In this document: positions 7,207 through 47,802 of the stretch, piece after piece
How positions within the stretch are numbered: the first letter of the stretch is position 1
Layout: each line of letters begins with the position of its first letter
IMG/VR virus record: IMGVR_UViG_2541047899_000009
Length of the DNA stretch: 47,802 bases
Direction: 5' to 3' (one strand)
DNA from: a virus
Lineage: Duplodnaviria; Heunggongvirae; Uroviricota; Caudoviricetes
Translations under genes and position numbers: made by a program
Notes under the pieces: generated by a model
Told to the model about the DNA's origin: nothing
Seen by the model: the letters and a program-made list of their open reading frames with translations, nothing else
Databases searched by the model: none

Positions 7207-7806
7207 TCAGAATTTATAACCGACACCCACGATGAAACCGTCAGTGCGCCAGTCACCACTGCCGGAGCCTTCATAAGCAATATCAATGGCCACGGATTCG
7301 GTCGGGTTAAACTGCACGCCAGCTCCCCACGCCAGAGACGTGTTGCTGTGGCGACCGTCATCACTTCCGGTCAGCACATCGTGCGTTTTCCCCTTATTGT
7401 CAGTTACGCGGAGATAATCCCCGGAAAAAGTCGACACACGGCTGTAAGCCATACCCGCCATCGCATACGCGCTGAACCATTCATTCACGCGCACAGACGG
7501 CCCCACCATCACGCTGAACCAGCGGTTACGCACGGAATCTTCATGCCAGCGGGTATTGCTGTAACGGGTAAGCTGGCGATTCTTGTCTCCTGCATAGCTG
7601 AATGACGTCACCAGCCCCAGTGTGTCCGTAAACTCATAACGGTATTTCACGTTAACCCCGTTAAGATCATCGCTGCCGGGAACGTTCGTCGAGGCATGAA
7701 GATACCCCGCGCTCAGCGTGGACTGATGTTCAGATGCCCATGCAGGCGCACCGGATACGGACAGACAGATGGCTGCGGACAAAATGGCTGCACAAACTTT
7801 ACGCAT
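7207..7806 (-). CDS. lom: Lom (Ail/Lom-family outer-membrane beta-barrel protein)
   Basis: 199 aa with signal peptide ([24 protein letters not shown]), alternating beta-strand pattern and C-terminal aromatic residue (GYKF); lies between J and stf as in lambda. Confidence 0.9.
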
Positions 7807-10800: not shown

Positions 10801-11269
10801 CTTTAATGGTGATGTCTTTTTCCGTCACCCAGCCACCGTTACGTTGTATCTGAACCAGCAGGCGGACTTCCGACGGATTCCTGTCCCCCTTTGAGGTGGT
10901 TTCCACCAGTGCCTGCACGCCGAAGGTAAAACGCAGTCGGTCAATGTTTGCCGACGTGATGGTCCGGGTGATCGGCGTGTCGTATTTCACTTCCGTACCC
11001 AGCACCGTCTCGGAGCCGGAGGATTCAAATCCCTCCGGCGGTGTTTGCTCCTGCTCACCGGCCCGGAACACCACCGTGACGCCGGAGATGTTGGTATTCC
11101 CCTCAATGTCCAGCACTGGCGTACTGTTCAGCAGCACGCTTTTTAATCCATCTACCGGACCTTCAACCGGCCCTTCGCTGATGGCATCGATCACACTCAG
11201 CAACTGCGTGGACTTCAGGTTGTCCTTCGCTTCGCGCGGAGTATGCCCCTTACTGCTGCCTTTACCCAT
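7874..11269 (-). CDS. J: tail tip host-specificity protein J
   Basis: N-terminus [34 protein letters not shown] matches recalled lambda J nearly residue for residue and length is about 1131 aa. The track ORF extends to 11314 but homology supports the internal Met. Confidence 0.95.
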
Positions 11270-11329
11270 TCCTAACGCTCCATAAACGACAAAACCGCCC
11301 GGAGGCGGTTTCACATAAAACGTTTTTCA

Positions 11330-11977
11330 TCAGCGACCAATCACCACAACCTGACCACCATCCCCTTCGTCTGCCGTGCTGATCTCCTGAGAGACCACCC
11401 GCGACCCCACGCGCATTTCACCGTACAGAACGGGCAGAACATTGCCCTGGGCAACCATGTTATCCAGTGAGGAGAAATAGGTGTTCTGTTTGCCGTTATC
11501 TGTACTTGCTGCCGTGGGCGTCCTGGCTTTCGGTGCCAGCATCTGCGCCACTCCGCCCAGGATCATACTGGCCCCTGCCGCATACATACCCGATACAGCC
11601 GCGGCTCCCAGCCAGCCCACAGGGTTCCACCATGCCACCGCAATCAGCGCCGCCCCCAGCACCACCTGAAACACACCGCCACTTTTAGCTCCCGCCAGAC
11701 GCGGCACGATGTGGATCACGGCACCATTTGCCAGCGGCTCATTAAGACGGGCAGACAATTCGGTTTCACCGGCATCACGCCCGGCAATGCGTACCTGGTA
11801 CCAGCCGTCGCTCAGTTTCTGACGAAACGCCGGGATCTGCATGGCCAGCGCCCGGATGGCTTCGGACCCCGTTTTCACTCGAAGGTCGATGCGGCGGCCA
11901 AATCGTTGTAAATCCCCGTAAAGGCAGATGCGTGCCATGCCCGGTGACGCCAGAGGGAGTGTGTGCGTCGCTGCCAT
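11330..11977 (-). CDS. I: tail tip assembly protein I
   Basis: 215 aa; MAATHTLPLASPGMARICLYGDLQRFGRRIDLRVKTG... and C-terminus NGKQNTYFSSLDNMVAQGNVLPVLYGEMRVGSRVVSQEISTADEGDGGQVVVIGR match recalled lambda I; overlaps K by about 103 nt as in lambda. Confidence 0.95.
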   Translation of the reverse strand: MAATHTLPLASPGMARICLYGDLQRFGRRIDLRVKTGSEAIRALAMQIPAFRQKLSDGWYQVRIAGRDAGETELSARLNEPLANGAVIHIVPRLAGAKSGGVFQVVLGAALIAVAWWNPVGWLGAAAVSGMYAAGASMILGGVAQMLAPKARTPTAASTDNGKQNTYFSSLDNMVAQGNVLPVLYGEMRVGSRVVSQEISTADEGDGGQVVVIGR

Positions 11978-28407: not shown

Positions 28408-28678
28408 GATGTTACCGTAGTATGTGAGTATCCATCGAATAGATACCAAGCAAAAAAGCTCCCGAAGGAGCCTTCATTTTCACTTTTTTAAATCCAACGA
28501 CAGACGGCTGGCATTTAAGTATTGTGAAATATTATCAAATGTAATCATCATTGATTTACAAAAGATACATTTTGCCCCGAAAGGATTCATGTCAGAAACA
28601 TCAAAAGATGATGTTCTATACTGGGAACCATGACAACACGGGCATCTAAAGTGAATATGGTTTGTAATATTGTCTACC

Positions 28679-28891
28679 TCAAAGCGCCACTACATGAACA
28701 GCGGCAGGACCTTTAGGTCCGTTCTCAATACCAAATTCAACTTCCTGATTCTCAGTTAATGTTTTGAAATCGTTGCTCTGAATTGCTGAGAAATGGACAA
28801 ACACATCTTTGCTGCCATCTTTCGGCGTGATGAAACCAAAACCTTTTTCAGGGTTAAACCATTTCACTAAACCAGTCATTTTGTTAGACAT
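28679..28891 (-). CDS. cspI: cold-shock protein (CspA family)
   Basis: 70 aa; RNP1/RNP2 motifs (KGFGFI, VFVHF); C-terminus ...PAAVHVVAL matches recalled CspI. Confidence 0.85.
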
Positions 28892-29253
28892 AATTATTAC
28901 CTTTTGAAGAAATTAGCCCTTGGGCAGAATGGTCCGAAAAAAAATATCAGAGAGAAAAACCAACAAGGAAATCTCAAGAGGTACAAATAATAAAATTATA
29001 ACAATGACTGCTTCAGATAAATTTGTAACAAACCAGAACACCATTAACGCATGATTAACCACCCATAGCAAGGATTACTTTTGTAAAGAAAAACACAGCA
29101 ATGAAAGAATAGCTTTATTTATTAATAAAACGTGTCATTCTGATTAAGACCTTTTATCTTACCCTTAAGATTTCAGGAATTTTGGCTCATGGAAGAGTCC
29201 TTTTTATTTAAATTTTACATTCCGCGATGTAAATGTTCCGATTTAATATTACC

Positions 29254-30277
<1,024 letters not shown>

Positions 30278-30281
<4 letters not shown>

Positions 30282-30565
30282 ATATATTTATGATGAGGAC
30301 GCTCGTGCTTATTGGCAGGATTTTCAATCTTAAAGGAGTACTGATGCTGCAGATAAGACTCAACTTTTTCTGACAATTTTTCTGCTACTTCCAGGAAGAC
30401 TTGCCGGACGCTCCTTCTGGCTGCTGCCTCATAAAACTCCAGCGCAGCTCCTTCAACACGGTCCATGGCGACATCCAGGTCAAAAATTTCACCGTCAAAG
30501 CGTTCTTTGTCCTGTAAGGCTACAGTTACCGTAACTTTATTCTCAAAATTACGGACTCCTTTCAC
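30278..30565 (-). CDS. ydfR: YdfR-like (DUF1327) protein
   Basis: 95-aa ORF between holin and endolysin, as recalled for Qin ydfR. Confidence 0.55.
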
Positions 30566-30593
30566 AACCAGTTCATAGTCTTGAGTCGTTGGA

Positions 30594-30809
30594 TTACTCT
30601 CCTCTCGCAGCCTTACGCCTGTCTTCTTTAATCTTGAAATAAAGATTTGTCAGATACGTCAGCAGGCCAAAAACCAGGCTACCCAGCACACCGATTGCAG
30701 CCCACTGTGACGGAGTTACTTTATCGAGTAACTGCAATGCCCAGAAACCAGCATTACCCGCCGATGTGCCATAGGCAACACCTGTTGTTAACTTATCCAT
30801 TGATTTCAT
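30594..30809 (-). CDS. essQ: class II holin / pinholin with dual start (S21-like)
   Basis: [71 protein letters not shown]; two TM domains and the M-K-S-M dual-start motif of phage 21 S. Confidence 0.85.
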
Positions 30810-31028
30810 ATCCTCACCCCGATGTACACGGATGGTGCAATATGTTTGAAAAGATCGGAGTCTACGGGGTAGTTTTGACAGCACACGCTGTTCTCAACGG
30901 CGCTAAAGAAACATACACATTAAAAATGTGAGTAATTATTTTGAAAGAAAGTCATATATAAAATAATAATACGAGAAATGTTTTCATATTTAGTGTACTG
31001 TATACGGCCATTTATACAGGAAAAGCCT

Positions 31029-31199
31029 ATGTCAGAACGTAAAGACTCAAAATCACGCCGTAATTATCTCGTTAAATGTTCCTGCCCAAACTGCACCCAA
31101 GAGTCAGAACACAGTTTTTCAAGAGTACAAAAAGGTGCCCTTTTGATCTGCCCTCATTGCAACAAAGTATTCCAGACAAATCTTAAAGCTGTAGCCTGA
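31029..31199 (+). CDS. small zinc-ribbon protein (hypothetical)
   Basis: About 56 aa from the internal Met (MSERKDSKS...); paired cysteines CSCPNC...CPHC. Confidence 0.4.
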   Translation: MSERKDSKSRRNYLVKCSCPNCTQESEHSFSRVQKGALLICPHCNKVFQTNLKAVA

Positions 31200-31252
31200 T
31201 TGATTTTATTAGTAACAAGTATTTTTTATATTTTAATAATATATTTAAAGCA

Positions 31253-31283
31253 GATAATAAAAAACCCGCCTGAGCGGGTTTGA
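31253..31283 (-). terminator. rho-independent terminator of cspB
   Basis: Hairpin aaacccgc-ctga-gcgggttt followed on the minus strand by ttttttatt. Confidence 0.6.
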
Positions 31284-31562
31284 GATTGTGGTGCTTTTTG
31301 TGGGAGTCATCCACTTACGCACTTTGTTTTGCCATGCCAGCAGTTAGCTTCTGCTGTAAAACTATTCATGCAGCAAACCTGCACTTCACCACAATGGTTA
31401 GCATACTTTTCCTGATTAAGATTTTGCCAAATATGCTGGCCATTGTTTCATGTATTGGACCTCCTTAAATTTTATTAAAGAAATCCAATATTCACTACTC
31501 TGTCCGTATCTCTACTCAGGCATCAGCCTTCTTCGTTATCGTATACAGACGAGCGATGAATT

Positions 31563-31778
31563 TTAATCAGTAATGATGACATTTGCTGCTGCAGGACCTT
31601 TAGCACCACTCTCTATAGAGAAGGTAACCTTTTGACCTTCAAATAAGGTTCGATAATTATCATTCTGAATCGCAGAAAAATGCACAAACACATCTTTACT
31701 ACCATCAACAGGAGAAATAAAGCCGAAACCTTTATCAGCGTTAAACCATTTTACTAAACCAGTCATTTTATTTGACAT
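31563..31778 (-). CDS. cspB: cold-shock protein (CspA family)
   Basis: 71 aa: [67 protein letters not shown]...; recalled CspB. Confidence 0.85.
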
Positions 31779-32078
31779 TCTACATTCCTTAACTTGAGCC
31801 TTTCGGCATAAATGGTTTGCATAACAGAAACGACTTCGTACTTAATTGGAGAGACTCAAAGAAGGAATAAGTGAATAACACCTGAAATGAGAACTGCTTT
31901 AGTAAACTACTTCGTATATCGTCTGTTCTTCAAACCGACGCAATCATTAACGCATAGTTGAACATATGAAGCAATGTTTATTTTAGACATCCAGCCATCT
32001 TCAACCCCATCAAAAAACTATAGCTTTCTTCAGGAACGTGTGTATAGTGCGCCAAGTTATCAGTATTAAGGAATTTTT

Positions 32079-32291
32079 TTGTCCCGTAAAATGACAGGAA
32101 TTGTCAAAACCTTTGACGGCAAAAGCGGCAAGGGTCTTATCACCCCATCCGATGGTCGTATCGATGTCCAGCTTCATGTTTCAGCGCTCAATCTCCGCGA
32201 TGCAGAAGAAATTACCACCGGATTACGCGTGGAATTTTGCCGGATAAATGGTCTGCGTGGCCCTTCAGCTGCCAATGTTTACCTTTCATGA
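32079..32291 (+). CDS. cspF: cold-shock-protein-like (CspF/CspH type, divergent RNP motifs)
   Basis: 70 aa: [26 protein letters not shown]...[16 protein letters not shown]; divergently transcribed from cspB. Confidence 0.8.
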
Positions 32292-32587
32292 GCTATATTA
32301 AAGCTTTAATTTCAGGCCCCATCGGATCACACATGGAGAGTTTTTATGAATAACCCCGTCTGTCTTGATGACTGGTTGATTGGCTTTAAAAGCTTATGCT
32401 GTACTTTGGCCGTAATAGCTCTGCTAATAATATAATAAGCAGACTCATTGTGTTTAGGGACATTGTACTGGAAGAAAACATTTTAAACATCAGGCAAATA
32501 ACCAAGTCACCAGCTAAATAATAAGTTAACAGACATGAGTCCCGGGATGAGATTCAACATTACCATTGCCCCATTTAAAGCACAAAA

Positions 32588-32615
32588 CCCGCTCATCAGC
32601 GGGTTTTCTACTTTT
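32588..32615 (+). terminator. hairpin terminator after cspF (possibly bidirectional; candidate tR' on the minus strand)
   Basis: aaacccgctcatcagcgggttt followed by tctactttttc on the plus strand; the same hairpin on the minus strand is followed by tgtgcttt. Confidence 0.55.
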
Positions 32616-32645
32616 TCTTAACGTCGGGTATACAAAGCCCATCAT

Positions 32646-32681
32646 TGAAAAAATTTTATCCATATTTTTTGAAAAATGCAA
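32646..32681 (-). promoter_or_regulatory. candidate sigma70 late promoter (PR'-like) downstream of Q
   Basis: On the minus strand: TTGCAT, 17-nt spacer, TAAAAT, located about 35-65 bp downstream of the Q stop. Confidence 0.4.
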
Positions 32682-32712
32682 ACATCATGTCGCCATCTTC
32701 AGCAAAAATCAT

Positions 32713-33465
32713 TTATCTCGTCACCTTCCTCAATTGCGCTTCCGCGTATGCTTCTTCCTGCCAGCACTTTGTTACCAGTTTACCAATGACGTCCGCATAC
32801 CCCTTATACCACTGATAATCGGTCAGGTCTGGTACCAGCTTCTGGACATGACGTCGTGCCAGCGTGGTCGGTAAACGACTAAACCGGTTTCCATTACAAC
32901 GCCCACAAATCTTATATACCGGTACGCCATGAAACCGGGTTCTTTTTTCATCCAGAACAATCCCTTTACCCTTACACCCTCTGCACGCTGTGCTGACTTC
33001 GCCCTTACCATGGCAATGCTGACATAGTTCCTTCACCCATTCTTCCTTGATTACAGATTCCCCGCGTCTGTAGTGTTTCACCACTTCGCGCAATACATTA
33101 TAAAATCCCGTACCTGAACAATGCTCACAGCGAGCCTTACTTGCCGCAGACCTGGAGTAATCAGCAAAGGCAAAATTCACGAGGTAAGGAATAATCTGTA
33201 ACCGGATTTCTTCACTCAATTTGTTCAATGTCGGGTTATCCAGTGCCATCGCGTAATTTAGCAGGCCTTCAATCGCAAACTGAGCGTCCTGAACACCAAC
33301 TTTTGCCAGAAATAAGGCCAACCCAAGTGGTGCTTTCGACTGCACCATCCCCTGCGCTGCCATTACATCCGTAATTGTTAAACAACCGGTGCCTGTCGCT
33401 GGAGCGTCATCGCTCAATTTTGGAGATTTTGGGGAGTAATATTTTGGTAAGGCTTCAAGGTTCAT
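32713..33465 (-). CDS. quuQ: late-gene antitermination protein Q (phage 21/82 Q family)
   Basis: 250 aa from MNLEALPKYY; zinc-binding cysteine clusters (CEHCSGTG, CQHCHGKG, CRGCKGKG, CGRCNGN). Confidence 0.85.
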   Translation of the reverse strand: MNLEALPKYYSPKSPKLSDDAPATGTGCLTITDVMAAQGMVQSKAPLGLALFLAKVGVQDAQFAIEGLLNYAMALDNPTLNKLSEEIRLQIIPYLVNFAFADYSRSAASKARCEHCSGTGFYNVLREVVKHYRRGESVIKEEWVKELCQHCHGKGEVSTACRGCKGKGIVLDEKRTRFHGVPVYKICGRCNGNRFSRLPTTLARRHVQKLVPDLTDYQWYKGYADVIGKLVTKCWQEEAYAEAQLRKVTR

Positions 33466-33478
33466 GCTCGTTCTCCAC

Positions 33479-34567
33479 TTACGCCAGTACGCCAATTGCC
33501 AGCGCGCGATCGATAAAACGAAATATCAGCTCCAGTTGGGAGCCATACTTCTCTTCAAATGCCACTGTATCCGTATGCAGCTCGTTGTGATGCTTTCTGC
33601 ACAAAGGCAACACAAAGAGATCATGTGCTTTTGTTCCCATTCCGCCCTGCCCGTGACCAATCAGATGATGCGGATCGTCGGCTGGCATACCGCAGCAAGC
33701 ACACGGCTGTGTCTTAACCCAACGTGTGTATTTCTCCTTAACCCAGCGGCGACGTTTAGGCAGCTTCATGAAAGATTCCGGAGACTCTGGATCAACGGTG
33801 ATGCTTACCACCGTCTTTTCCTGTGGTAGTTTTTGTTGCTGGTGGGCGTAAGGCAACGGTGCAAGATTTTTTGTGCGTTGTTTCAATATGCTGGTGGCGG
33901 TCTGCTCTCCCGGTACGATGTCGCTTTCGCGGTACACCGAGCAGATTTTTTCCGCTGGTAATCCCAGCGAACGACGCGATACAGCCTCAGGTAGTGCATC
34001 CACCACCTGATTGCAGACCGCCCACCAAGATAATTCAGCCAAAGATAATTCCCGCTCCTGCGTACCGCTTATTGCGTGACGGATGACGTCAATCACCCAT
34101 GCTGTCAGATTTTGTTGAGCAAGCAGCTCCAGTGATTCCGATGTCTGGTCACGCAGTTGGTTGTCGCAGTGCCAACACAACACCATTGCGCCGGTACCAT
34201 AACGGTGAATGACTGTTTCAGTGTGATGGTAATCGCCATTAGGCCACTGGCAGGATGTAACATGACGTAATAGCCAGTCAGACAATGAGCCAACGCCGCC
34301 AGCAGCACGAATCACCCGTTCGTTACTAAAAAACGGCAGCAATGTTTTGTCTTCCGCCAGCGGCTGGCCAACGGCAGGAACGACTCCGGATGGCAGATTA
34401 CGCATGCTTTTTGGTTCCGGTTCCACCAGCACTCGAGGATTATGAAATATCTGTATGGATTCACGGCCCGGCTTAAGGACCACCAGCCCAAGCTCAGGCA
34501 CCAGAACAGGTCTAAGTAATACCCGCACGTTACCTCCAGATCCGTTGCTGGAAAGTGCGGGACGCAC
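33479..34567 (-). CDS. ydfU: YdfU-like (DUF968) protein with HNH-like zinc finger
   Basis: 362-aa ORF; C-terminal CACCGMPADDPHHL...LCRKHHNELH motif; directly upstream of Q. Confidence 0.7.
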   Translation of the reverse strand: MRPALSSNGSGGNVRVLLRPVLVPELGLVVLKPGRESIQIFHNPRVLVEPEPKSMRNLPSGVVPAVGQPLAEDKTLLPFFSNERVIRAAGGVGSLSDWLLRHVTSCQWPNGDYHHTETVIHRYGTGAMVLCWHCDNQLRDQTSESLELLAQQNLTAWVIDVIRHAISGTQERELSLAELSWWAVCNQVVDALPEAVSRRSLGLPAEKICSVYRESDIVPGEQTATSILKQRTKNLAPLPYAHQQQKLPQEKTVVSITVDPESPESFMKLPKRRRWVKEKYTRWVKTQPCACCGMPADDPHHLIGHGQGGMGTKAHDLFVLPLCRKHHNELHTDTVAFEEKYGSQLELIFRFIDRALAIGVLA

Positions 34568-34808
34568 GTGGTGGGCGTTCGGAGTAAGGCAATCTGACTG
34601 AGATTATCCAGTGACGGTAGTCGAGACTAAGGGCTTTCTTAACCTCGTATCCGCGCCTGCGGTAACACTGAATTATCCATTCAGCCTGCTCTTCAGTGCA
34701 TGGTGGATGCTGGAACCAGTCCGATTTGAATGCATGAAAACGCCGTCCGCACCTGCTGGCAAAGACGGCAGAATCATCAGAATTGTGTAATTTGGTATCG
34801 TGCGCCAT
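34530..34808 (-). CDS. rem: Rem-like small protein
   Basis: Internal Met MAHDTKLHNSDDSAVFASRCGRRFH... within ORF 34530..34919; position between hokD and ydfU as recalled for Qin; start uncertain. Confidence 0.5.
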   Translation of the reverse strand: MAHDTKLHNSDDSAVFASRCGRRFHAFKSDWFQHPPCTEEQAEWIIQCYRRRGYEVKKALSLDYRHWIISVRLPYSERPPRASRTFQQRIWR

Positions 34809-35169
34809 CGGTTGTCTCTGCTGGCGCAGCAGGTGCCAGTTGTTCAGGCTGGCGTATAAAGTATAAATAAACTGGTTCCAGTGTAAAGCCCCTACATTAA
34901 TGGAATAAAAGTCAAACAACAGATTGTTGGGATAAACACAACGCTTATTATTAAAAGCGATTAGATAAATTAAATTTTAATGTTATGCAATTTTACCAGA
35001 TCACCATAACATCTCGTTTGAAACCACCAAAACAACAACCATATCAATATTGATTATGTTAAAGTGAGTAAATATGGAAAACAACAAATCTGCACATTAC
35101 GCTCCTTTTTTATCTGTGATACTTTTTGTTTTATGCTGTGTGTGGGCATTATTTTTATAAAAATATTTA

Positions 35170-35198
35170 CAGATAAAATAAACCCGCCGAAGCGGGTT
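35170..35198 (-). terminator. rho-independent terminator of hokD mRNA
   Basis: Hairpin aacccgc-ttcg-gcgggtt followed on the minus strand by tattttat. Confidence 0.6.
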
Positions 35199-35266
35199 AA
35201 GTGCGGGTGCATTGAGGATGCCTGACACATCAGAGGTGGCGAGGGATTTCTCCCTCGCCTGGTCTC

Positions 35267-35422
35267 TTACTCCTCAGGTTCGTAAGCTGTGAAGACAGCG
35301 ACCTCCGTCTGGCCGGTTCGGATTCGTACCTCGCAGAGGTCTTTCCTCGTTACCAGTGCCGTCACTATGACGGTTAAACAGATGACGATCAGGGCGATTA
35401 ACATCGCCTTTTGCTGCTTCAT
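35267..35422 (-). CDS. hokD: Hok-family type I toxin
   Basis: 51 aa: MKQQKAMLIALIVICLTVIVTALVTRKDLCEVRIRTGQTEVAVFTAYEPEE; single TM helix, canonical Hok. The upstream in-frame extension and leader are consistent with mok/sok elements. Confidence 0.9.
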   Translation of the reverse strand: MKQQKAMLIALIVICLTVIVTALVTRKDLCEVRIRTGQTEVAVFTAYEPEE

Positions 35423-35699
35423 AGCCTGCTTCTCCTTGCCTTTCGGCACGTAAGAGGCTAACCTACATGTGTCTAGCATGAAATTGGCCTCAGATTAATG
35501 TTAAGCGTCTTGCAGGACGCGTAATGTTAACTGGGGCTTTTCTCTATCTGCCTTTGGTGTTCATGCCTGAGACAGATAGCCTCAAGCACCCGCAGCCATT
35601 CTACTTAACTCCCGTCACCTCGCCAATATGAAATCAATCAGAAAGGCGAACCATAAGAGCAATAGCAAGACAATAAGGCCCGCATGGTCGTACAAAGAC

Positions 35700-38498
35700 T
35701 CAGGCACCGTGACATTTTTTGTACTTTATTCCCGAGCCACAGGGGCATTGTTCATTCCGGCCGACCGCACCAAAAACTTCAGTTAATTTAGTCTTTGCTG
35801 CTTTATGGGCAAGCTGTACGATGTAATTTGATTGATTTTGGATTTCTTGACGCTGTACACCTGTGAGGCCTTCGATATAGGGAGCAAGGCGCTGCATTTC
35901 GACATCAGCTGCTTTATGCTGACCCGATAGTGCCAATATGACTGCGTACTGGCTTCGAACCTGAATCAGTCGATGTACTAGACCTGCCTCATTGACAACC
36001 GGCAGGACATGTTGCTCCATGACTTCCTTGGCACCGTCGTAATCCTTTATGGCAACAAACTCATCCGCCAGATCTTGGCCCACCCTGACCATGGATTCCG
36101 GGGCCATGGCCAGATTGTAGAACTTCATCGAATGAATACGCAGTAATGGTGACAGTTTTCCCTGCGCATCACGAATTCTGGCCAGCAACTCCAGAGCATC
36201 AGCCATATGTTTAAAGTGTTCCTGCATATTTTCGGAATGATTAATAGTTTTCCATAATGCGTCGGCGTTTTTTCCTATGACATCAGCAGGTGTGATACCA
36301 AATAAAGAATAGTACCCTTGTATAACATTACAGCTTAATGTTTCAGCATCCTTGAGTTTTTTTAATCTCCAGAGTGCAATGGCATGGTTGTAGTCAAAGA
36401 TGCGTTTATGTTCTTCATCTGGGAGTTGGGGGCGGACTTCCTGTGCCAGCTTTTGAACTTCTCGTGCATCATTGCTTTCTGCCGAAAATAACATTCGTTT
36501 CATTGCATAGGCCATCTCTTCTTGATAGCCGAACTTGTGCTCCGCAAGTAAAGCTCCCATGATGTTTAACCTCTGAGCAATGTGGTCGGATATTCCGTCT
36601 TTAAGCTCAACGAAAACAAGGCCATCCAATGCCCAGAATTTATGAACAGGTCCCAATAAGTCCGATGTTGCAGCACGCTCCAAGCTTGCAAGAATGTCGA
36701 CCGTCACGCCCATCTCATAAAACATTTCTTGGCCTGAGAGTTCGATCAACGTCGTGACATCATTAAGCTTAATATAAAGTTGAGTCAACAACGATAACCG
36801 TTTTGTATTGCGGGTATTATGAAGACTTTCAACTAAAAGGTCTTTCAGCGCTAGTAGCGCTTTGTTCGATATACCCTGATCCATCAGTTCCAGATGTTGC
36901 AGTCCTAGCCCCCTGACAGCATCATGTACCTTCAGGGTCTGGTTTCCATAAATTTCAATAGTGCCAGTAGCGCGCATTTTCCTAATTAAAGAAGCCGCAC
37001 TGCTTGGTGAAATGTTCAGCGAATTGATTAGGAGCGTAGAAATCTCTTCGCGACTCAGCCCTACGTCAGAGAGACTGAACAATGCCAGCGCGCTCTGAAG
37101 TAGTGATTCAAATCCCTGAAATACACGTGACAGAATAATTTCTTGGGCGGTTTCCGCAGTATGGGTTTGTTGCTGGAGTTCAGCACACAGAGCATCGACA
37201 CTACGCTCATAGTCAGAAACGGCGATTTTTGCGGCGCTCTCTACATACAGGGGAAGACCACCAGTGTAAGCCCGTAGCTGCTCGTATCCCATAGCGGTGG
37301 CAAATCCTCCGATATCGTTTACAACGACAGCTACCGTATCGAGATTCCATCCCTGCAGGCCCTCGCGCTGTAGCCCCGTCATGACCTCCAGTTCGCGAAC
37401 GTTTTCGTGAGGCTGGCACAACAGCACAAAACGAATATGTGTAGTTGCATTCAGAACATCCCGTAGATTTTCCGCAGGTACACGATGGGCGTTATCCAGA
37501 ACCAGCACCAAGGTGGTACCCTGCTCTTTCAGGTAGGTATCAAAACTCCTAAGAGCCTCAAAACCACTGGCTCCGGGGAGCAAAATCCTGCGCAAACCGT
37601 CTTGGTCACGGGCTGTAAATCTAGCAGCCATCTCCCGCACCAGCGTACTGGCCAGAGCTGGACCGGGAAGATCACCGGTGTCGTAATAAGCACAAAGTGC
37701 AGTGGAGTGTAATGCGGCCTGTGCGGCCCACGCTGTCTTGCCTGCACCTGAGAGTCCACAAAGGATACGGATCCGCTCACCAGATGTGAGAGAAGGTTCT
37801 TCGTTTTGTGGGCGGTACAGTGCTGGTGGTGCAGGAAAGTCCTGTAGCTGAACGATCAACTGTTCAAATAGTTCAGTAAGTTCCTCCGTGAAAAACGTAT
37901 GTTGTCCATTGGTATCGCCTCCGGTGGCGGCAAGCTGAACCAACCCTGCTAACTTCCAAATCAAGGATTCTGGGGACAATAGTGAAAATTTCAGCTTTTC
38001 TGCTTCTGCGATACACCATGTGGCCGCATCAGCCAGAGTACTCCATGCGGGCGGAAGTGCCGGGTGACGTCCAGCTGTCGACCGGGGCCAGACAATAAGA
38101 ACATCAGAAGGAAGCTTTTTATCGTCAATCATCTTCTGAAGCAGCGGTCCAGGCGCCTGGTTTACAATAATCACAAAAGAAGCCACCCCTTCGCGGTTTG
38201 CCGAAGTATGCTCATTTCTGAGCTTTACAAATCGCTCCAGAGCCCCCGACACATCGTTGGGCATAATAGGCTTTGAACGGGTTTTAACCTGAATGTAGAG
38301 ACGTTCCTGTTTGGATTTCAGCTCAATATCCTCATCAAGCTCGACAGTTACTGAGTCCATAGCAGCCCTCTGCGCCAAAAGTAAGCAGCCTACAGCGTAA
38401 AGATGCTGGTAAAGGAACCCCCGGTGTACCGCTTCGATACGCACCAACTGCACAGGATCCAGTACGTCCAGATGTTGTTTGTTTTCACTTCCCCACAT
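35700..38498 (-). CDS. STAND-like P-loop NTPase with N-terminal nuclease-like domain, helical repeat region and C-terminal SEC-C zinc motif; candidate Avs/NLR-like antiphage defence protein
   Basis: 932 aa. Walker A GLSGAGKT (about aa 248-255), Walker B LVLVLD (about aa 330-335), possible PD-(D/E)xK-like residues in the N-terminal 80 aa (VELDEDIELK...YIQVK), about 550 aa of predicted helical repeats, terminal CPCGSGIKYKKCHG. Single large gene flanked by AT-rich spacers immediately upstream of hokD. Confidence 0.6.
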   Translation of the reverse strand: MWGSENKQHLDVLDPVQLVRIEAVHRGFLYQHLYAVGCLLLAQRAAMDSVTVELDEDIELKSKQERLYIQVKTRSKPIMPNDVSGALERFVKLRNEHTSANREGVASFVIIVNQAPGPLLQKMIDDKKLPSDVLIVWPRSTAGRHPALPPAWSTLADAATWCIAEAEKLKFSLLSPESLIWKLAGLVQLAATGGDTNGQHTFFTEELTELFEQLIVQLQDFPAPPALYRPQNEEPSLTSGERIRILCGLSGAGKTAWAAQAALHSTALCAYYDTGDLPGPALASTLVREMAARFTARDQDGLRRILLPGASGFEALRSFDTYLKEQGTTLVLVLDNAHRVPAENLRDVLNATTHIRFVLLCQPHENVRELEVMTGLQREGLQGWNLDTVAVVVNDIGGFATAMGYEQLRAYTGGLPLYVESAAKIAVSDYERSVDALCAELQQQTHTAETAQEIILSRVFQGFESLLQSALALFSLSDVGLSREEISTLLINSLNISPSSAASLIRKMRATGTIEIYGNQTLKVHDAVRGLGLQHLELMDQGISNKALLALKDLLVESLHNTRNTKRLSLLTQLYIKLNDVTTLIELSGQEMFYEMGVTVDILASLERAATSDLLGPVHKFWALDGLVFVELKDGISDHIAQRLNIMGALLAEHKFGYQEEMAYAMKRMLFSAESNDAREVQKLAQEVRPQLPDEEHKRIFDYNHAIALWRLKKLKDAETLSCNVIQGYYSLFGITPADVIGKNADALWKTINHSENMQEHFKHMADALELLARIRDAQGKLSPLLRIHSMKFYNLAMAPESMVRVGQDLADEFVAIKDYDGAKEVMEQHVLPVVNEAGLVHRLIQVRSQYAVILALSGQHKAADVEMQRLAPYIEGLTGVQRQEIQNQSNYIVQLAHKAAKTKLTEVFGAVGRNEQCPCGSGIKYKKCHGA

Positions 38499-38732
38499 AA
38501 CCTATTCCTTGAGCTATTTGTTTGACGGACTCACATTAGTACTTCAATGTAATCAATTGAACTTGAATTATAATTAAAAGAGGCAAAGAAAAGTCATTTG
38601 GCCTATTCTCCGTTGATTAATACAAACTAACGATACCAACGTTCACCTGACTCAAAGCTGACAACCAGACTAGGTCTGGGCCTGTGCCATCGAAGTGTCA
38701 ATTAATATCTGAACTAATGCTCTTTAATTTCG

Positions 38733-39149
38733 TCACTTCAATAAATACCGAACATTTCCCTGATAAAATTCCAGTATGCGCTGCATAACTTCGCTCTGAC
38801 GACACTCGCGACAAATTATATTCTGTCGTCTGTTGTAACGGCGTATTTCGCCATCTAGCAATGAATAAATCAGGTCAGGGTCGCTCTTCTTTTTCACTGC
38901 CGCTCTCGACATTTTTTTGCGGGCTTTTCCCCAGTCCTTACTGGCCTGCTCCGAAGGAAATATTCCATGTCCTGAACCATATACTGCGCCACTAACTACC
39001 AGCTCTTTCGCCAGAACTTCTATCAGGTGTCTCGTCGCCCCGGTTTCATTTTCCAGTTGTTTACGCGTTTTTCGCCCATCTCTGCATACCAGTTCCACAA
39101 TGCGCGCCTTCACTTCTTCCCGCAGTTCGGGAGTAAAAACTTTTGCCAC
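38733..39149 (-). CDS. hypothetical basic protein (possible winged-helix DNA-binding), downstream of the replication initiator
   Basis: 138-aa ORF 37 bp after the replication gene; Lys/Arg-rich with C-terminal CRECRQ; no ATPase motifs. Confidence 0.45.
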   Translation of the reverse strand: MAKVFTPELREEVKARIVELVCRDGRKTRKQLENETGATRHLIEVLAKELVVSGAVYGSGHGIFPSEQASKDWGKARKKMSRAAVKKKSDPDLIYSLLDGEIRRYNRRQNIICRECRQSEVMQRILEFYQGNVRYLLK

Positions 39150-39186
39150 AAGCCCTCCTGAAAATTACCCCATGACCTGAAATCTG

Positions 39187-40263
39187 TTACCCTCTGAATC
39201 CCGGCGGAATTTCGGTGTCCGGTTCAGAAATATGATTAACACAACGCTGGTTGTTCGTGCCGCTTACCGGGAGCAACCAGGGGTTTTCAAAATTCCGGTC
39301 CGGTCCAAAAAACGTCGTCGCTCGCTGAACAAATTCCGTTCCCGTTTTCCCGGTAGCAGCCAGGTATCTTGTGTAACGCCTCACACCATCCAGCATGGCC
39401 TCTGGTGGCACCCCCTCGCGTAATCTGGCCTTCCAGGCACTGAAAGCGGATTTCTTCGGGTTTGCCCCGGCTCGTAACGGGTATTCCCGCCAGACCTGCT
39501 CGAACGCATCCGGATAATCCACTCGTCCCACAGGCTGCCCGGTGTTTTCCGGGACTACCCGATCGGCTTCCCGCTGAATGGCGGAATCGGCTTCAGGCTG
39601 CTGCAGTTGGTGTGATTGCTCCGGCCCTGCGGTCATCGCCTGCTGCACAGCGCCCGAATCGGCTTTCAGCGCATACGCTGAATCGGCTTCCGGTGTCGTG
39701 CCTGCGGGCTGGCCAGGAGTGACGGTCTGAACATCCCCTACATGGTTCGTGGCGTTTTTTACGCCAGGGACCATAGTGTTTTGATCTTCTTTATCTGTAT
39801 CTCTATCTGTATCTTTATCTGTCGTGACTCGTCGTGACATGTGCGTGACATTTCGTGACGCGCCGTGACAATCGCCATTTTGTTCCCGCTTTCTTTCCCT
39901 CTCACGCTGCGCCCTCTTGCGCTCTGCCGGAGATTTTGCGGTTTGCGAAATATTGCCGTTGTCCTCTTTAAGCACCTGGCGTTTCTCCCATCCAGTGATT
40001 AAATCACCATCAAGTACCCGCCCCTGCATCGTCTGCAAAATTGAATCAATTACCTCTTCTGTCACGTCGAGCGCACTTGCCAAATCTTCTGTCGTGACAT
40101 CAATGTGACCTCGCGTGACATTTCGTGACGCGCTCACCAGGAGGTGGATATACACTGCCATCACTGTTGCAATTGGCTGCCCTGACACCCTGGCAATTGT
40201 TCGCCACTTAGGGTCATTTGGCATGTCATGCCATAATCTGAGCCAAGCGTTAGCCATACTCAC
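39187..40263 (-). CDS. phage replication initiation protein (O-like, with internal iteron-bearing region)
   Basis: 358 aa; N-terminal DNA-binding-like region, low-complexity acidic/basic linker (KDTDRDTDKED), conserved C-terminal region (YPLRAGANPKKSAFSAWKARLREGV); the gene contains clustered direct repeats (see iteron feature). Confidence 0.65.
   Translation of the reverse strand: MSMANAWLRLWHDMPNDPKWRTIARVSGQPIATVMAVYIHLLVSASRNVTRGHIDVTTEDLASALDVTEEVIDSILQTMQGRVLDGDLITGWEKRQVLKEDNGNISQTAKSPAERKRAQRERERKREQNGDCHGASRNVTHMSRRVTTDKDTDRDTDKEDQNTMVPGVKNATNHVGDVQTVTPGQPAGTTPEADSAYALKADSGAVQQAMTAGPEQSHQLQQPEADSAIQREADRVVPENTGQPVGRVDYPDAFEQVWREYPLRAGANPKKSAFSAWKARLREGVPPEAMLDGVRRYTRYLAATGKTGTEFVQRATTFFGPDRNFENPWLLPVSGTNNQRCVNHISEPDTEIPPGFRG
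39790..40135. repeat. iteron-like direct repeats / putative replication origin inside the replication gene
   Basis: gcgtgacatttcgtgacgcgc occurs near 39843 and again near 40113; additional cgtgac copies (tcgtgactcgtcgtgacat, tctgtcgtgacatcaatgtgacc) and tctgtatct repeats in an adjacent AT-richer stretch. Confidence 0.55.
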
Positions 40264-40328
40264 CTCCTCTGATACCGAATCTTTTTACTCACGAATTGCC
40301 GGAAGCGATTCGATATGGCTATTGTCAG

Positions 40329-40754
40329 TCAATGTACTGCCACAGCATTTCCTGCCGGGCCACCACGGTTCATCTGATTGAAACCGGCGATTGCCACTGC
40401 GACAAAATCATCAGCGTCTCTCACCAGTCGCTCCCGCGTCTCCACCAGCTCCCGAAAATAAGTTGAACTGTGGCTGCGCATTCTGGCCACCAGCAAAGGT
40501 GGCATTGCCTTTTCGATCGCTGGTAACAACGCCTGAATTTTTTCAACTGCATCAGGGGTGTCTTTCTCTATCCAGCGGAAAATTTTCTGGGTATTGCGAG
40601 CCAGGGCTTCCGGATGGCTGTCGTCATACAGTTCCGGGAACGTCATACCCAGTTCGAAATACGCTTTGGTAATCTTCGCAGTCGGTACTTTTTCGCCGTC
40701 CGGATGCGCCCAGGCATTCATCGCCATGCGGATGTGTTCATGCTTGATTTTCAT
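40329..40754 (-). CDS. CII-like regulator (YdaT family)
   Basis: About 141 aa from MKIKHEHIRMAMNAWAHPDGEK...; position immediately after the Cro-like gene in the rightward early operon. Confidence 0.55.
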   Translation of the reverse strand: MKIKHEHIRMAMNAWAHPDGEKVPTAKITKAYFELGMTFPELYDDSHPEALARNTQKIFRWIEKDTPDAVEKIQALLPAIEKAMPPLLVARMRSHSSTYFRELVETRERLVRDADDFVAVAIAGFNQMNRGGPAGNAVAVH

Positions 40755-40980
40755 GAATCCCCCCTTGGTTAGAAGGCGGATTATGATCAGAATCGGGAAT
40801 GACAACCGTCGGTATGTGTAACTCATATTTGAGCGCCCCGGCAGTGACTGCCTGAATTAGCAACGCCCATTTCCACGGAACGTCTTCCCCCCACATGCTG
40901 ACTGTGGTTTTTGACGTTCCTAGAGCGGCGGCTGTTTTAACAACTCCGCCAAAATAGCCTAATACTTCTGATTTTTTCAT
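40738..40980 (-). CDS. Cro-like HTH repressor (YdaS family)
   Basis: About 80 aa from MKKSEVLGYFGGVVKTAAALGTSKTTVSMWGE (HTH); divergent from the CI-like gene. Confidence 0.65.
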   Translation of the reverse strand: MKKSEVLGYFGGVVKTAAALGTSKTTVSMWGEDVPWKWALLIQAVTAGALKYELHIPTVVIPDSDHNPPSNQGGIHENQA

Positions 40981-41071
40981 GAGTCGCTCCATAAAACTGA
41001 ACGCCAAAAGTTTAATAATCAAAACCAAAGAAAGTCAAGAAACAAAACCATCTGTGTTTTAAAATCAAAAC
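40981..41071. promoter_or_regulatory. divergent immunity promoter/operator region (OR analogue)
   Basis: 91-bp AT-rich intergenic region between divergent Cro-like and CI-like genes with partial palindromes (aaaactgaacgccaaaagttt, aaaaccatctgtgtttt). Confidence 0.5.
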
Positions 41072-41710
41072 ATGAACAAGCAAACAATATCTGAACGCAT
41101 AACCCAACGTATGCATGCGCTAAACTTGAAAGGCAAAGACCTTGTCAATGCCACTGGCGCATCAAAAGGCTCCGTAAGTCAATGGATGAACGGTGGAGGA
41201 GCGCCGTCCTCGCGTTACATAAGTTCACTGGCAAAGATATTGAAAGTAAACGAAAATTGGCTTCTTAATGGAGGAGAGTTAAATACAGGTGATTCGCTTG
41301 ATCTATCTTTACCGCCGATAAAAACGGTTCCGCTACTATCACTTCAGCAGGCAGCAAGCTGGAGTGATTATATGAAAAATTCCTCAATAACCTCTTGTGT
41401 GCAGCTTGTCGGAGAAATCCCGGCCAATACCTTTGCTGTTGTTCTAGAGAGTGACAGTATGTCGACATCTGGTGGTGGAGTTTCCATCCCAAATGGTTCA
41501 ACAGTTTTTGTTGATCCCGATCGAATCGTACAACCAGGAAATATTGTCCTTGCCTTACCCAAAGGGACCACAACGCCTGTCATTCGCAAACTGGAGATAG
41601 AAGGGCCGGATATTCTTTTAGTCCCCACGAATCCTCGCTACCCTTCAATTATGCTGGATGATCTATCTTGCATATTGGGAGTATGCTTTAAAATTCAACA
41701 AGATATTTAA
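41072..41710 (+). CDS. CI-like prophage repressor (HTH-XRE N-terminal domain + S24 LexA-like autopeptidase domain)
   Basis: 212 aa; HTH (GKDLVNATGASKGSVSQWMNG), S24 domain with Ser in VVLESDSMS and Lys in VIRKLEIEG. Confidence 0.85.
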   Translation: MNKQTISERITQRMHALNLKGKDLVNATGASKGSVSQWMNGGGAPSSRYISSLAKILKVNENWLLNGGELNTGDSLDLSLPPIKTVPLLSLQQAASWSDYMKNSSITSCVQLVGEIPANTFAVVLESDSMSTSGGGVSIPNGSTVFVDPDRIVQPGNIVLALPKGTTTPVIRKLEIEGPDILLVPTNPRYPSIMLDDLSCILGVCFKIQQDI

Positions 41711-42002
41711 CCAACCTCATCTATTTGATTAACTGTATGCCATCGTAGTGATGGCGTAACAGCTGCCTGCTTAAAATGTTTTGATAAAAAAACATTGACC
41801 TTAAATGTTCATTTTTCTAAACTTCATTCATTCCCTCACCCCGCCCCACAGAATGCAGGGCAATACTTCGAGTTACCAGGCAGTGGTCAGGGGTTAAGTA
41901 GCCAGCCCGAGGCGTAAGAACATGACGGCAGGGTTCAACTTTAATAACTATGCAGCAGGTTTTTGTTCCGCTACCCCGGCGTTAAGGGGAAATGAGGTCA
42001 GC

Positions 42003-42158
42003 ATGGATACTATCGATCTTGGCAACAGCGAATCTCTGGTATGTGGCGTGTTCCCCAACCAGGACGGCACGTTCACCGCGATGACGTATACCAAAAGCAA
42101 AACGTTTAAAACCGAAAATGGTGCCCGTCGCTGGCTGGAAAGAAACTCAGGTGAGTGA
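42003..42158 (+). CDS. ydfA: YdfA-like small protein
   Basis: 51 aa from the internal Met (MDTIDLGNSESLVCGVFPNQDGTFTAMTYTK...); first gene of the dicB-type operon. Confidence 0.6.
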   Translation: MDTIDLGNSESLVCGVFPNQDGTFTAMTYTKSKTFKTENGARRWLERNSGE

Positions 42159-42159
42159 T

Positions 42160-42735
42160 ATGGATTTCGACACAATCATGGAAAAGGCTTACGAAGAATA
42201 CTTCGAAGGCCTTGCCGAAGGCGAAGAAGCTCTCAGCTTCAGTGAGTTTAAACAGGCACTCAGAATAAGAATGTGCTCTCACAATGACGCGGAGCACAAA
42301 TATGAGAAGCAAAATCAGACCGCAGAAAATTTTGTTCTGGAACCCGGAGAAACGCTTTTCAAAATTCCCGTTACGTGCCCCATTTGCGGTTTTACATCAG
42401 AAGAACTTGACGACTCCTGTAACAATCAGGAAACAACCAAGTATGTCGAAGATGATACTGAGTGCGCACGAAGAACGATTATATCCACGAGTCCAAACTC
42501 CAGGATCAATAAATCTCACTTTGAGAGGGTGATTAATCCACTCCCCCAAACCAATAAAAAAGATGCCGGAGGACAAAAAACCCAATGGAACAACGGGATA
42601 TCTGTCAAAAAAAGACGTTCCATTAAAGACAAACAACGCAGCGCCAACAACTGTAAGCGCTTTATACCAGTAATCAATTTTCATGTTCTTAAGCGGATTT
42701 ATTGGTGGTTGCGACATTGCTTAATGAATCCTTAA
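42160..42735 (+). CDS. hypothetical protein (YdfB/YdfC region), zinc-ribbon-like
   Basis: About 191 aa from MDFDTIMEKAYEEYFEGL; CPICGF...C motif; basic C-terminus. Confidence 0.5.
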   Translation: MDFDTIMEKAYEEYFEGLAEGEEALSFSEFKQALRIRMCSHNDAEHKYEKQNQTAENFVLEPGETLFKIPVTCPICGFTSEELDDSCNNQETTKYVEDDTECARRTIISTSPNSRINKSHFERVINPLPQTNKKDAGGQKTQWNNGISVKKRRSIKDKQRSANNCKRFIPVINFHVLKRIYWWLRHCLMNP

Positions 42736-42994
42736 AACTGTGGTGATTTTAAGGATACCACCTCGCCTGACGTGGTTAAAAGCAGGCACACAACACGAAA
42801 GCGCACGGCGAAGTTCGTCTCACTGTACGGTGTCGTTAAATTTAATTCGACCGTGCGCTTCCGGTTGTGGCAACCCGCAAAATGGCGCGGCGGTAAGTAT
42901 GGCGGGGTTATTCCTTCCCCGTTGAGGACACCGAGTTGTCAGGTTGACCATACGCTTAAGTGACAACCCCGCTGCAACGCCCTCTGTTATCAAT

Positions 42995-43052
42995 TTTCTG
43001 GTGACGTTTGGCGGTATCAGTTTTACTCCGTGACTGCTCTGCCGCCGTTTTT
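42995..43052 (+). ncRNA. dicF: DicF small regulatory RNA (ftsZ-targeting)
   Basis: tttctggtgacgtttggcggtatcagttttactccgtgactgctctgccgccgttttt matches the recalled DicF sequence, including the 3' stem-loop and U-tract; located upstream of dicB. Confidence 0.85.
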
Positions 43053-46506: not shown

Positions 46507-47802
46507 ATGAGAGAAGTTGAAATGAAATATCCGACAGGCGTGGAAAACCATGGAGGGAAATTACGTATCTGGTTTGTTTATAAAGGCGTAAGAGTCAGGG
46601 AAAATCTGGGGGTTCCTGACACAGCAAAAAACAGGCGCGTTGCAGGTGAACTACGCTCCTCTGTTTGTTACGCAATAAAAACTGGTGTTTTCGACTATGC
46701 AAAACAGTTTCCCTCCTCACGCAATCTGGAAAAATTTGGTGAGGCCCGACAAGATTTAACCATAAAAGAACTGGCTGAAAAATTTCTGGCACTGAAAGAA
46801 ACTGAAGTCGCCAAAACATCACTCAACACATACCGTGCCGTCATCAAAAATATCCTGAGCATAATCGGTGAAAAAAATCTTGCCTCATCGATTAATAAAG
46901 AAAAATTACTGGAGGTTCGTAAAGAGCTACTGACTGGATACCAGATCCCCAAAAGTAACTATATTGTTACACAACCAGGGAGATCGGCTGTAACTGTAAA
47001 TAATTACATGACAAATCTTAACGCCGTGTTCCAGTTTGGTGTTGATAACGGTTACCTGCCAGATAATCCGTTTAAGGGGATCTCGCCATTAAAGGAATCA
47101 AGAACCATTCCGGATCCTCTTTCGCGGGAGGAATTTATCCGTCTTATCGATGCGTGCAGAAATCAGCAAGCAAAAAATTTATGGTGTGTTTCTGTTTATA
47201 CTGGCGTTCGCCCTGGTGAGCTGTGTGCACTTGGATGGGAGGACATAGATCTGAAAAATGGAACAATGATGATCAGGAGAAATTTAGCAAAAGACCGTTT
47301 CACGGTACCAAAAACACAGGCGGGAACCAATCGGGTCATTCATCTTATTAAGCCAGCAATCGACGCTCTCCGGAGTCAGATGACATTAACGAGACTGAGC
47401 AAAGAGCATATCATTGATGTTCACCTCAGAGAGTATGGCAGAACAGAAAAACAAAAATGCACCTTTGTTTTTCAACCTGAAGTGTCAGCGAGAGTAAAAA
47501 ATTATGGTGACCATTTTACCGTTGACTCAATAAGGCAGATGTGGGACGCAGCGATAAAACGTGCCGGACTCCGCCATCGAAAATCATATCAGTCGAGACA
47601 TACTTATGCCTGCTGGTCGCTGACAGCTGGTGCTAACCCGGCATTTATAGCAAACCAGATGGGCCATGCAGATGCGCAAATGGTATTTCAGGTATACGGA
47701 AAATGGATGTCTGAAAACAATAATGCACAGGTAGCTTTGTTAAATACACAGTTAAGCGAGTTTGCCCCAACCATGCCCCATAACGAAGCAATGAAAAATT
47801 AA
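46507..47802 (+). CDS. int: tyrosine-type site-specific integrase
   Basis: 431-aa ORF (probable start at MKYPTG, about 46522); conserved catalytic residues in the C-terminal domain (RPGELCAL..., HxxR in SRHTYACWS, Tyr in VYGKW); ends at the window edge. Confidence 0.9.
   Translation: MREVEMKYPTGVENHGGKLRIWFVYKGVRVRENLGVPDTAKNRRVAGELRSSVCYAIKTGVFDYAKQFPSSRNLEKFGEARQDLTIKELAEKFLALKETEVAKTSLNTYRAVIKNILSIIGEKNLASSINKEKLLEVRKELLTGYQIPKSNYIVTQPGRSAVTVNNYMTNLNAVFQFGVDNGYLPDNPFKGISPLKESRTIPDPLSREEFIRLIDACRNQQAKNLWCVSVYTGVRPGELCALGWEDIDLKNGTMMIRRNLAKDRFTVPKTQAGTNRVIHLIKPAIDALRSQMTLTRLSKEHIIDVHLREYGRTEKQKCTFVFQPEVSARVKNYGDHFTVDSIRQMWDAAIKRAGLRHRKSYQSRHTYACWSLTAGANPAFIANQMGHADAQMVFQVYGKWMSENNNAQVALLNTQLSEFAPTMPHNEAMKN

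Follow-up and report, generated by a model that had tools for sequence, protein, structure and literature searches.

In this study, we analyzed the region around hokD in a 47,802-nt stretch of viral DNA (IMG/VR record IMGVR_UViG_2541047899_000009, hereafter the window), which is a Qin-like lambdoid prophage of Escherichia coli with a STAND gene between the phage gene DUF977 and the toxin-antitoxin locus hok/sok. On the minus strand, from early to late genes, the window holds cro, a YdaT-family gene, a replisome-organizer gene, DUF977, a 234-bp spacer, the STAND gene encoding a 932-aa protein, hok/sok, a 92-aa open reading frame (ORF), ydfU and the Q antiterminator. A query of positions 34500–40300 (5.8 kb) was 100% identical to two complete genomes, NZ_AP022087 and NZ_CP102244, the former of which matched the window at 99.97% identity across 11.5 kb. 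Our analyses make it likely that 35677–38652 is one occupant of a cargo site in Qin-like prophages, that this occupant is a single-gene, Avs-like STAND sensor, and that the relBE genes beside hokD in E. coli K-12 represent a separate event involving an ISNCY-family element.

The features of the locus are collected in Table 1. A Hok ORF, an upstream leader/sok region and a terminator-like hairpin are all present, which together identify the locus as a hok/sok type I toxin-antitoxin system; an earlier sequence-only reading of this DNA had taken hokD, its terminator and its leader to be intact, and this was borne out. A 70-codon in-frame ORF that includes hokD reaches up to 35479, and the HokD protein is the same as that of K-12 and that annotated in other E. 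coli (WP_000813254.1). The STAND gene (2.8 kb) and the AT-rich spacer that had been placed directly upstream of hok are there as well. The spacer (38499–38732, 36.8% GC) terminates at the DUF977 stop codon, and its cargo-specific part is confined to 38499–38652, the rest belonging to the DUF977 flank.

Table 1. Features of the DUF977–hokD region, in window coordinates
Feature	Start	End	Strand	Evidence	Remark
hok terminator-like hairpin followed by a T-run	35181	35198	-	inside the 35180–35436 block, 98.4% identical to K-12 hokD	
hokD coding sequence, 51 aa + stop	35267	35422	-	Pfam HOK_GEF, E = 3e-23	
hok mRNA leader/sok region, intact	35417	35591	-	Rfam RF01794, full model 1–157, 118.3 bits (gathering score 59)	
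Promoter-like site for hok mRNA, TTGGCG-17-TAGAAT	35598	35626	-	promoter scan	
Remnant of the conserved left flank of the slot, 66 bp	35611	35676			remaining ~240 bp of that flank gone in the window
Cargo cassette, single gene, 2,976 bp	35677	38652	-	homology to loci with other cargo ends at 35676 and restarts at 38653	
STAND gene, 932 aa: Cap4-like nuclease, STAND ATPase, TPR-like helical repeats, SEC-C zinc motif	35700	38498	-	Pfam, conserved motifs, AlphaFold2 model, Foldseek	
Cargo-specific AT-rich upstream region, 154 bp, 33.8% GC	38499	38652	-	perfect TATAAT at 38567–38572	
Conserved tail downstream of DUF977, 80 bp	38653	38732	-	homology ends where relatives have the 24-nt boundary hairpin	
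DUF977 gene (LygF in phage records)	38733	39149	-	PF06163, 4.7e-27	right-hand anchor of the slot
Phage replisome-organizer gene (replication module)	39187	40263	-	annotation in related records	weak DnaT-like C-terminus

The interval between DUF977 and hok/sok

A lookup of the exact HokD protein, for which 451 contigs were read, revealed ten distinct contexts, to which we added 80 of more than 576 IMG/VR loci with an identical HokD. The 70 loci that held both anchors, DUF977 and hokD, formed our catalog of the slot, so the suggestion that the flanks could be used to mine further cargo variants proved sound. Across these 70 loci the interval from DUF977 to hokD ranged from 1,089 to 5,261 bp and contained about 50 gene architectures, with cargo apparently largely of defense type. 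The flanks had 92–98% identity across loci on the hok/sok side and 72–92% on the DUF977 side, and they are present in thousands of E. coli genomes. The same flanks enclose other cargo in Evi, Tritos and mEp460, which are isolated, viable phages. As in the hotspots of P2/P4-type phages, therefore, conserved phage genes lie on both sides of a position at which many unrelated gene sets are found.

At least 16 of the 70 loci carried a PADLOC, AbiH or STAND-type system. The occupants included matches to the PADLOC models PDC-S33 (a RelA/SpoT protein, 1e-118), PDC-S15 (an FRG-domain protein, 7e-99), PDC-S39 (3e-102), Hp1 and Hp2, as well as Kiwa (KwaA, 1e-101; KwaB, 1.5e-159), PD-Lambda-2_C (1e-41) and a SMEK_N protein with a methyltransferase. 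In NZ_CP019903, AbiH and a 463-aa gene lie on the opposite strand, in a locus whose homology to the window runs as far as 35676 and resumes at 38653. Further loci held large unknown operons, some of them on the strand opposite to hokD, and several large slot proteins had no family at all. One locus, L039, encodes a 345-aa DUF5677 protein (identified by Pfam only, with no PADLOC match). A DUF5677 protein also occurs between a TIR/SEFIR gene and Gabija in an Enterobacter island that carries a homolog of the STAND gene (L108 and L110, 2391–3452), and its presence in both places makes it a candidate defense gene. Other occupants appear metabolic, such as a pair comprising a NUDIX hydrolase and a HAD phosphatase in L063 (identified by Pfam only; not scanned against PADLOC). 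A 259-aa cysteine-rich protein with CxxC motifs, present in L030, L038, L074, L088, L071 and L081, looks metabolic rather than defensive and had no PADLOC or NCBIfam family (Pfam not scanned). GC content did not distinguish cargo from flanks, being 47.7% in the slot, 48.3% and 51.5% in the flanks and 48.9% in the whole window, and it was dropped as a marker of foreign cargo.

Nine cargos had coincident boundaries, approximately 125 nt after the DUF977 stop codon and approximately 495 nt before the hokD start codon. Both of these common boundaries bear a 24-nt hairpin, GTCCGCT-N10-AGCGGAC, of which both copies were identified in five loci and a single copy in ten more. Its positions include 7031–7054 and 8497–8520 in L063, 6023–6046 and 8512–8535 in L085, 8512–8535 in L024 and 4418–4441 in L019. 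In L071 and L081 a variant, GTCTGCT...AGCAGAC, has both arms altered with pairing retained. Of 5,426 complete E. coli genomes, 1,617 (~30%) have the conserved 240-bp left flank of the slot, and in a spread sample of 40 rows, 35 had a match to it that began at, or a few bases from, one common point.

For the STAND cassette, the breakpoints of sequence identity were located at 35676 and 38653, the latter of which is the position of the hairpin in related loci. Other loci break at ~35610, the most common hok-side breakpoint, or at ~35603, both of which fall inside the hok promoter. An initial view that four cargos share the breakpoints of the window was wrong on the hok side, as 35676 is specific to the STAND cassette and the others share a further 240 bp. 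Rather than a single att-like site, the locus is best viewed as an interval prone to recombination in which one pair of boundaries dominates.

The relBE genes of K-12 Qin

The gene order of the Qin prophage in K-12 is ydfU, rem, hokD, relE, relB, ydfV, flxA, ydfW, ydfX, dicC and dicA. The relB-relE-hokD unit that the sequence-only reading had described is therefore correct, but its suggestion that relBE and the STAND gene occupy the same position is not, as the relBE block sits between the hok leader and the hokD start codon. The window is 98.5% identical to K-12 up to 34825, after which the next match is 35180–35436 only (98.4% identity), which takes in the terminator, hokD and the 14 nt preceding its start codon; these 14 nt (35423–35436) are all of the hok leader that remains in K-12. 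There is no K-12 homology between 35437 and 41964, with matches resuming at ydfA (41965), and neither homology to K-12 relBE nor a relB-relE-hokD arrangement was found in positions 30000–43000 of the window. Deletion has cost K-12 the slot, its copy of the leader and the replication genes; as DUF977 is missing as well, K-12 serves poorly as a reference for comparisons of the slot.

More informative were prophages that have both relBE and an intact replication module (L014, L017, L023 and L059). In these prophages a copy of the hok leader, equivalent to window positions 35610–35421 at 96.8% identity, is situated 3.3 kb upstream of hokD. The 3,274 bp in between (L017 3714–6987) encode an ISNCY-family transposase followed by ydfW, flxA, ydfV, relB and relE. 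The transposase matched NF033594 with 466 bits versus a cutoff of 250 and is annotated in RefSeq as a member of the ISEsa1 family. The segment is bounded by imperfect terminal inverted repeats of 28 nt, with 21 of the 28 positions matching, and is flanked by a 15-bp direct duplication, GGAGAAGCAGGCTAT, which represents the hokD Shine-Dalgarno sequence through the AT of the ATG. These terminal repeats and the duplication indicate that relBE arrived in the hok translation-initiation region as the passenger of an insertion sequence. Therefore, relBE, ydfV and flxA are passengers of an ISNCY-family element that transposed into the hokD ribosome-binding site, splitting the hok leader from hokD, and do not represent a replacement of the slot contents. 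The slot in prophages of this type holds small nin-type genes, as it does in L018 and L022. A hairpin similar to that at the slot boundaries occurs inside the relBE insertion, near flxA.

The insertion also explains why hokD of K-12 is without its sok/mok control region. The relBEF operon of K-12 has the hokD coding sequence and terminator in common with the window, but relBE is fused upstream of hokD through the ISNCY insertion, and K-12 retains only the right inverted repeat (L002 ~7290–7317) and the right copy of the duplication. A probe for the relE-hokD junction was covered in 1,164 of 5,426 genomes, and one for the intact leader-hokD junction in 4,027, although other hok loci may contribute to the latter figure. 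Integration of relBE into an ancestral hokD ORF of 70 codons has been stated previously (PMC6379469, citing Ramisetty and Santhosh 2016); a description of the insertion-sequence ends and target duplication of the relBE block was not found in the literature searched. We dropped an integrase-mediated origin of the block, which the old name intK for ydfW had suggested, since the ISNCY transposase and the inverted repeats favor transposition. The origin of relBEF is clarified by these findings, in that relBE reached Qin as an ISNCY passenger. The proposal of modular cargo replacement at a fixed hotspot is consequently supported for the variable, apparently largely defense-type cargo (about 50 architectures in 70 loci), but not for relBE as an alternative occupant.

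The STAND protein and its cassette

The 932-aa protein has the parts that define Avs proteins, namely a STAND/AAA+ NTPase with Walker A and B motifs, an N-terminal nuclease domain and C-terminal TPR-like repeats. Pfam identified Cap4_nuclease at residues 25–77 (27.1 bits versus a cutoff of 26.2), AAA_22 at residues 239–364 (E = 2.4e-8) and SEC-C at residues 914–931. Conservation was read across 20 homologs, down to 49% identity, in which the key residues of three motifs were invariant or nearly so: the Cap4-type PD-(D/E)xK motif (D55, D57, Q70 and K72), Walker A (G251, G253, K254 and T255 of GxGKT, 251–255) with Walker B (D335), and a SecA-type zinc motif, CxC...CH (C918, C920, C929 and H930). 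An AlphaFold2 model (mean pLDDT, the predicted local distance difference test score, of 79) comprised an alpha/beta N-terminal domain, a P-loop domain, winged-helix and helical parts and approximately 370 residues of helical repeats. The repeats, residues 540–910, are all-helical and had many TPR fold matches in Foldseek. The best Foldseek matches in the PDB were to a STAND-TPR protein (6mfv, 3e-14) and then to Avs3 bound to terminase (8dgc, 9e-14), while Cap4 (6wan) matched at 2e-3.

These results support the STAND protein being an Avs-like sensor and nuclease in a single protein. It has in common with Avs3 and Avs7 (PDB 8DGC; PMC12803255) a Cap4 nuclease, a STAND NTPase and a TPR sensor, with Cap4-type catalytic and Walker motifs, all encoded by a single gene, and Avs3 is its second-best fold match. 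Unlike Avs3, it is far shorter (932 aa versus the 2,028-residue Avs3 chain) and has a C-terminal SecA-type zinc motif. By analogy with Avs3 and Avs7 (PMC12803255), its C-terminal TPR-like domain may bind a phage protein, after which the ATPase would drive oligomerization and the N-terminal Cap4-type PD-(D/E)xK nuclease would be activated, cutting DNA and aborting the infection.

A total of 934 homologs were found at E below 1e-5, most of those listed having 932 aa, and their sources include Enterobacterales, Vibrio, Shewanella, Aeromonas, Pseudomonas and beyond. None of the 934 has a functional name. Searches of PADLOC, NCBIfam and PDB sequences for a named family returned nothing beyond the SEC-C tail and some weak similarity in the N-terminal nuclease; the N-terminus of LmuA (PADLOC) matched at 5.7e-7. 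WP_021564393, checked alongside Avs membership, is named in no paper of the literature searched. The SEC-C tail (window 35703–35759, residues 914–932) also matches the tails of the PADLOC models E1-E2, E2 and PDC-S12, and a SEC-C motif is known from the lactococcal antiphage system Rugutis (PMC11381338).

Homologs of the STAND gene adjoin Gabija in Vibrio cholerae, Enterobacter hormaechei and Yersinia enterocolitica, a recurrent linkage that might be more than common residence in islands. The Gabija-like pair, an OLD-type ATPase and a UvrD helicase, is directly beside the homolog (L104 3754–10799; L108 and L110 3512–9799; L111 3511–9799) and in Enterobacter and Yersinia is on the strand opposite to it. 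A homolog in Pseudomonas adjoins AbiH, and a 92%-identical relative adjoins an integrase and a type I restriction-modification system.

In E. coli the STAND gene is rare, being present in 16 of 5,426 complete genomes with at least 99.4% identity, and every copy is in the DUF977–hok slot. The exact DUF977 allele of the window is followed by the STAND gene in all ten of its distinct contexts. The spacing of DUF977, cargo and hok (8652; 11671 or 11728) recurs in eight of these ten, the exceptions being L008, which is off by 1 bp, and L013, which has a fragmented, shifted copy. The block of STAND gene and DUF977 was found in prophages that differ in integrase, repressor and Q type. Therefore, the STAND gene travels together with the neighboring replication genes as a block through mosaic prophages. 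This behavior and the rarity of the gene rule out core-gene status within the prophage family, in agreement with the earlier proposal that it is variable cargo. The STAND cassette was absent from 50,697 phage records, as no record holds most of the queried region. Two damaged copies of the gene were also observed: one disrupted by an ISEc52 insertion (NZ_OZ546984.1 361511–365562) and the L013 copy (8652–11447), which is split into three ORFs of 322, 337 and 175 aa. In comparisons with homologs of other genera, homology was confined to the coding sequence and did not extend into the region upstream of the STAND gene.

Interpretation of the locus and its surroundings

In the reading we favor, different Qin-like prophages would carry unrelated, mostly anti-phage genes between DUF977 and hok/sok, and lambdoid phages that come together in the same cell would probably swap these cargos by recombining within the conserved flanks. 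The occupant in the window would then be an Avs-like immune sensor of the STAND type, encoded by a single gene that has an AT-rich upstream region of its own. Several results weigh against this reading. The left breakpoint of the STAND cassette removes ~240 bp of the conserved flank, so the common boundaries are not used exactly. A search of the window for the boundary hairpin found none, and with no recombinase gene adjoining the slot either, the locus does not correspond to an integron-like, site-specific cassette system. Many slot loci hold small nin/ea-type genes or metabolic-looking occupants, which indicates that the site is not exclusively for defense, and frequencies from our IMG/VR sample are rough because of its size relative to the loci available. 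The promoter of the cargo gene is presumed to lie in 38499–38652 on the basis of base composition and a TATAAT element; a strict consensus promoter scan found nothing in that region. The STAND protein had no match at E ≤ 0.01 to the Avs models of PADLOC 2.0 (AVAST I–V) and no sequence match to solved Avs chains in the PDB.

The small-gene occupants (DUF4406, Ead/Ea22, DUF7167 and a 118-aa protein), together with the several distinct hok-side breakpoints and the recognition of accessory genes after the replication genes of lambdoid prophages (PMC13043305), could also be explained by ordinary mosaicism of the lambdoid nin/ea region, in which case there would be no defense-specialized site and the STAND gene would be one more moron. 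We regard this as unlikely given the number of loci with recognizable defense systems or large unknown operons, and given that a large class of loci has sharply coincident boundaries marked by a hairpin. It is even harder to sustain the view that relBE and the STAND gene are alternative cassettes of one fixed site directly upstream of an intact hokD, which we consider highly improbable. Both do lie between the replication module and hokD, and in some relBE prophages (L014, L017 and L023) the YdaT, replisome-organizer and DUF977 genes are intact, but the junctions contradict a shared site: the relBE block is situated between a complete copy of the hok leader and hokD and has the ends, duplication and transposase of an insertion sequence, while the slot proper in those loci is occupied by the same small genes as in loci of the L018 and L022 type, and the window and K-12 have no homology across the interval.

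A different question is whether the 932-aa protein is an immune sensor at all or instead a STAND-type regulator or housekeeping ATPase of the prophage. The curated Avs models do not match it and its SEC-C tail is best known from SecA, both of which would be compatible with such a role. However, the protein showed no DNA-binding output domain and has a conserved PD-(D/E)xK nuclease at its N-terminus, the gene is present in only 0.3% of E. coli genomes and its homologs are found in defense islands of five other genera, and we therefore consider a regulatory or housekeeping function very unlikely. A bolder proposal, which is possible but doubtful on present evidence, is that the DUF977–hok/sok interval is a hairpin-bounded site for defense cassettes at which the hairpins mark or promote exchange, that the 932-aa protein founds a new Avs-type family with a SecA-like zinc tail, and that several occupants are new defense systems. 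Under that proposal, the candidate systems may include the DUF5677 protein, a 484-aa protein, the 465-aa AbiH partner, an operon encoding proteins of 234, 142 and 365 aa, and a pair encoding proteins of 184 and 310 aa.

The favored reading, a cargo site with an Avs-like occupant, places the slot among systems that are already known. Hotspots of defense genes have been described in P2/P4 prophages and satellites (Rousset et al. 2022, PMC9122126; Vassallo et al. 2022, PMC9519451), and the hok slot resembles these in having conserved phage core genes around a short interval with many unrelated anti-phage systems, known and candidate, usually one or two per prophage. It differs from them in its location in the Qin-like lambdoid family, its anchors (DUF977/LygF and hok/sok), its several nested breakpoints instead of one and the part of its cargo that is not defense-like. 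An accessory-gene zone after the replication genes of lambdoid prophages has also been recognized, as exemplified by HepS in Gifsy-1, where the zone was used to nominate a defense gene (PMC13043305). Like that zone, the slot is downstream of replication genes and upstream of the late regulator; unlike the general zone, it is described here with exact boundaries, a catalog and population frequencies for one E. coli prophage lineage. In the literature searched, hokD, prophage, defense and hotspot came together in no paper, although an earlier description of the slot may exist, and DUF977 appeared in a single, unrelated paper.

Prophage defense hotspots are thus an established kind of locus to which the hok slot adds, and the hotspot idea is supported and extended by our results. 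As such hotspots are a productive source of new anti-phage systems, it is relevant that the hok slot is located in a very common E. coli prophage lineage and that its anchors are easy to search for: at one end hokD, which is near-invariant, together with its leader, and at the other end DUF977. The slot yields known systems beside uncharacterized candidates, among them a widespread Cap4-STAND-TPR protein terminating in a SecA-type zinc motif.

Other features of the window were noted in passing. Just downstream of hokD, positions 34826–35179 have no homology to K-12, where rem is situated, and are AT-rich (~34–35% GC) with no ORF longer than 58 aa, representing a further small point of variability, across hokD from the slot. 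The prophage looks largely complete, unlike the K-12-style remnant, as a full set of large late-gene ORFs is present between 1 and 25706 and an integrase-sized ORF reaches the window end (within 46507–47802). The window also carries two cspA-type thermoregulator leaders, a DicF RNA and a long ydfE-type gene (28652–29037, 31547–31939, 42996–43047 and 46507–47802).

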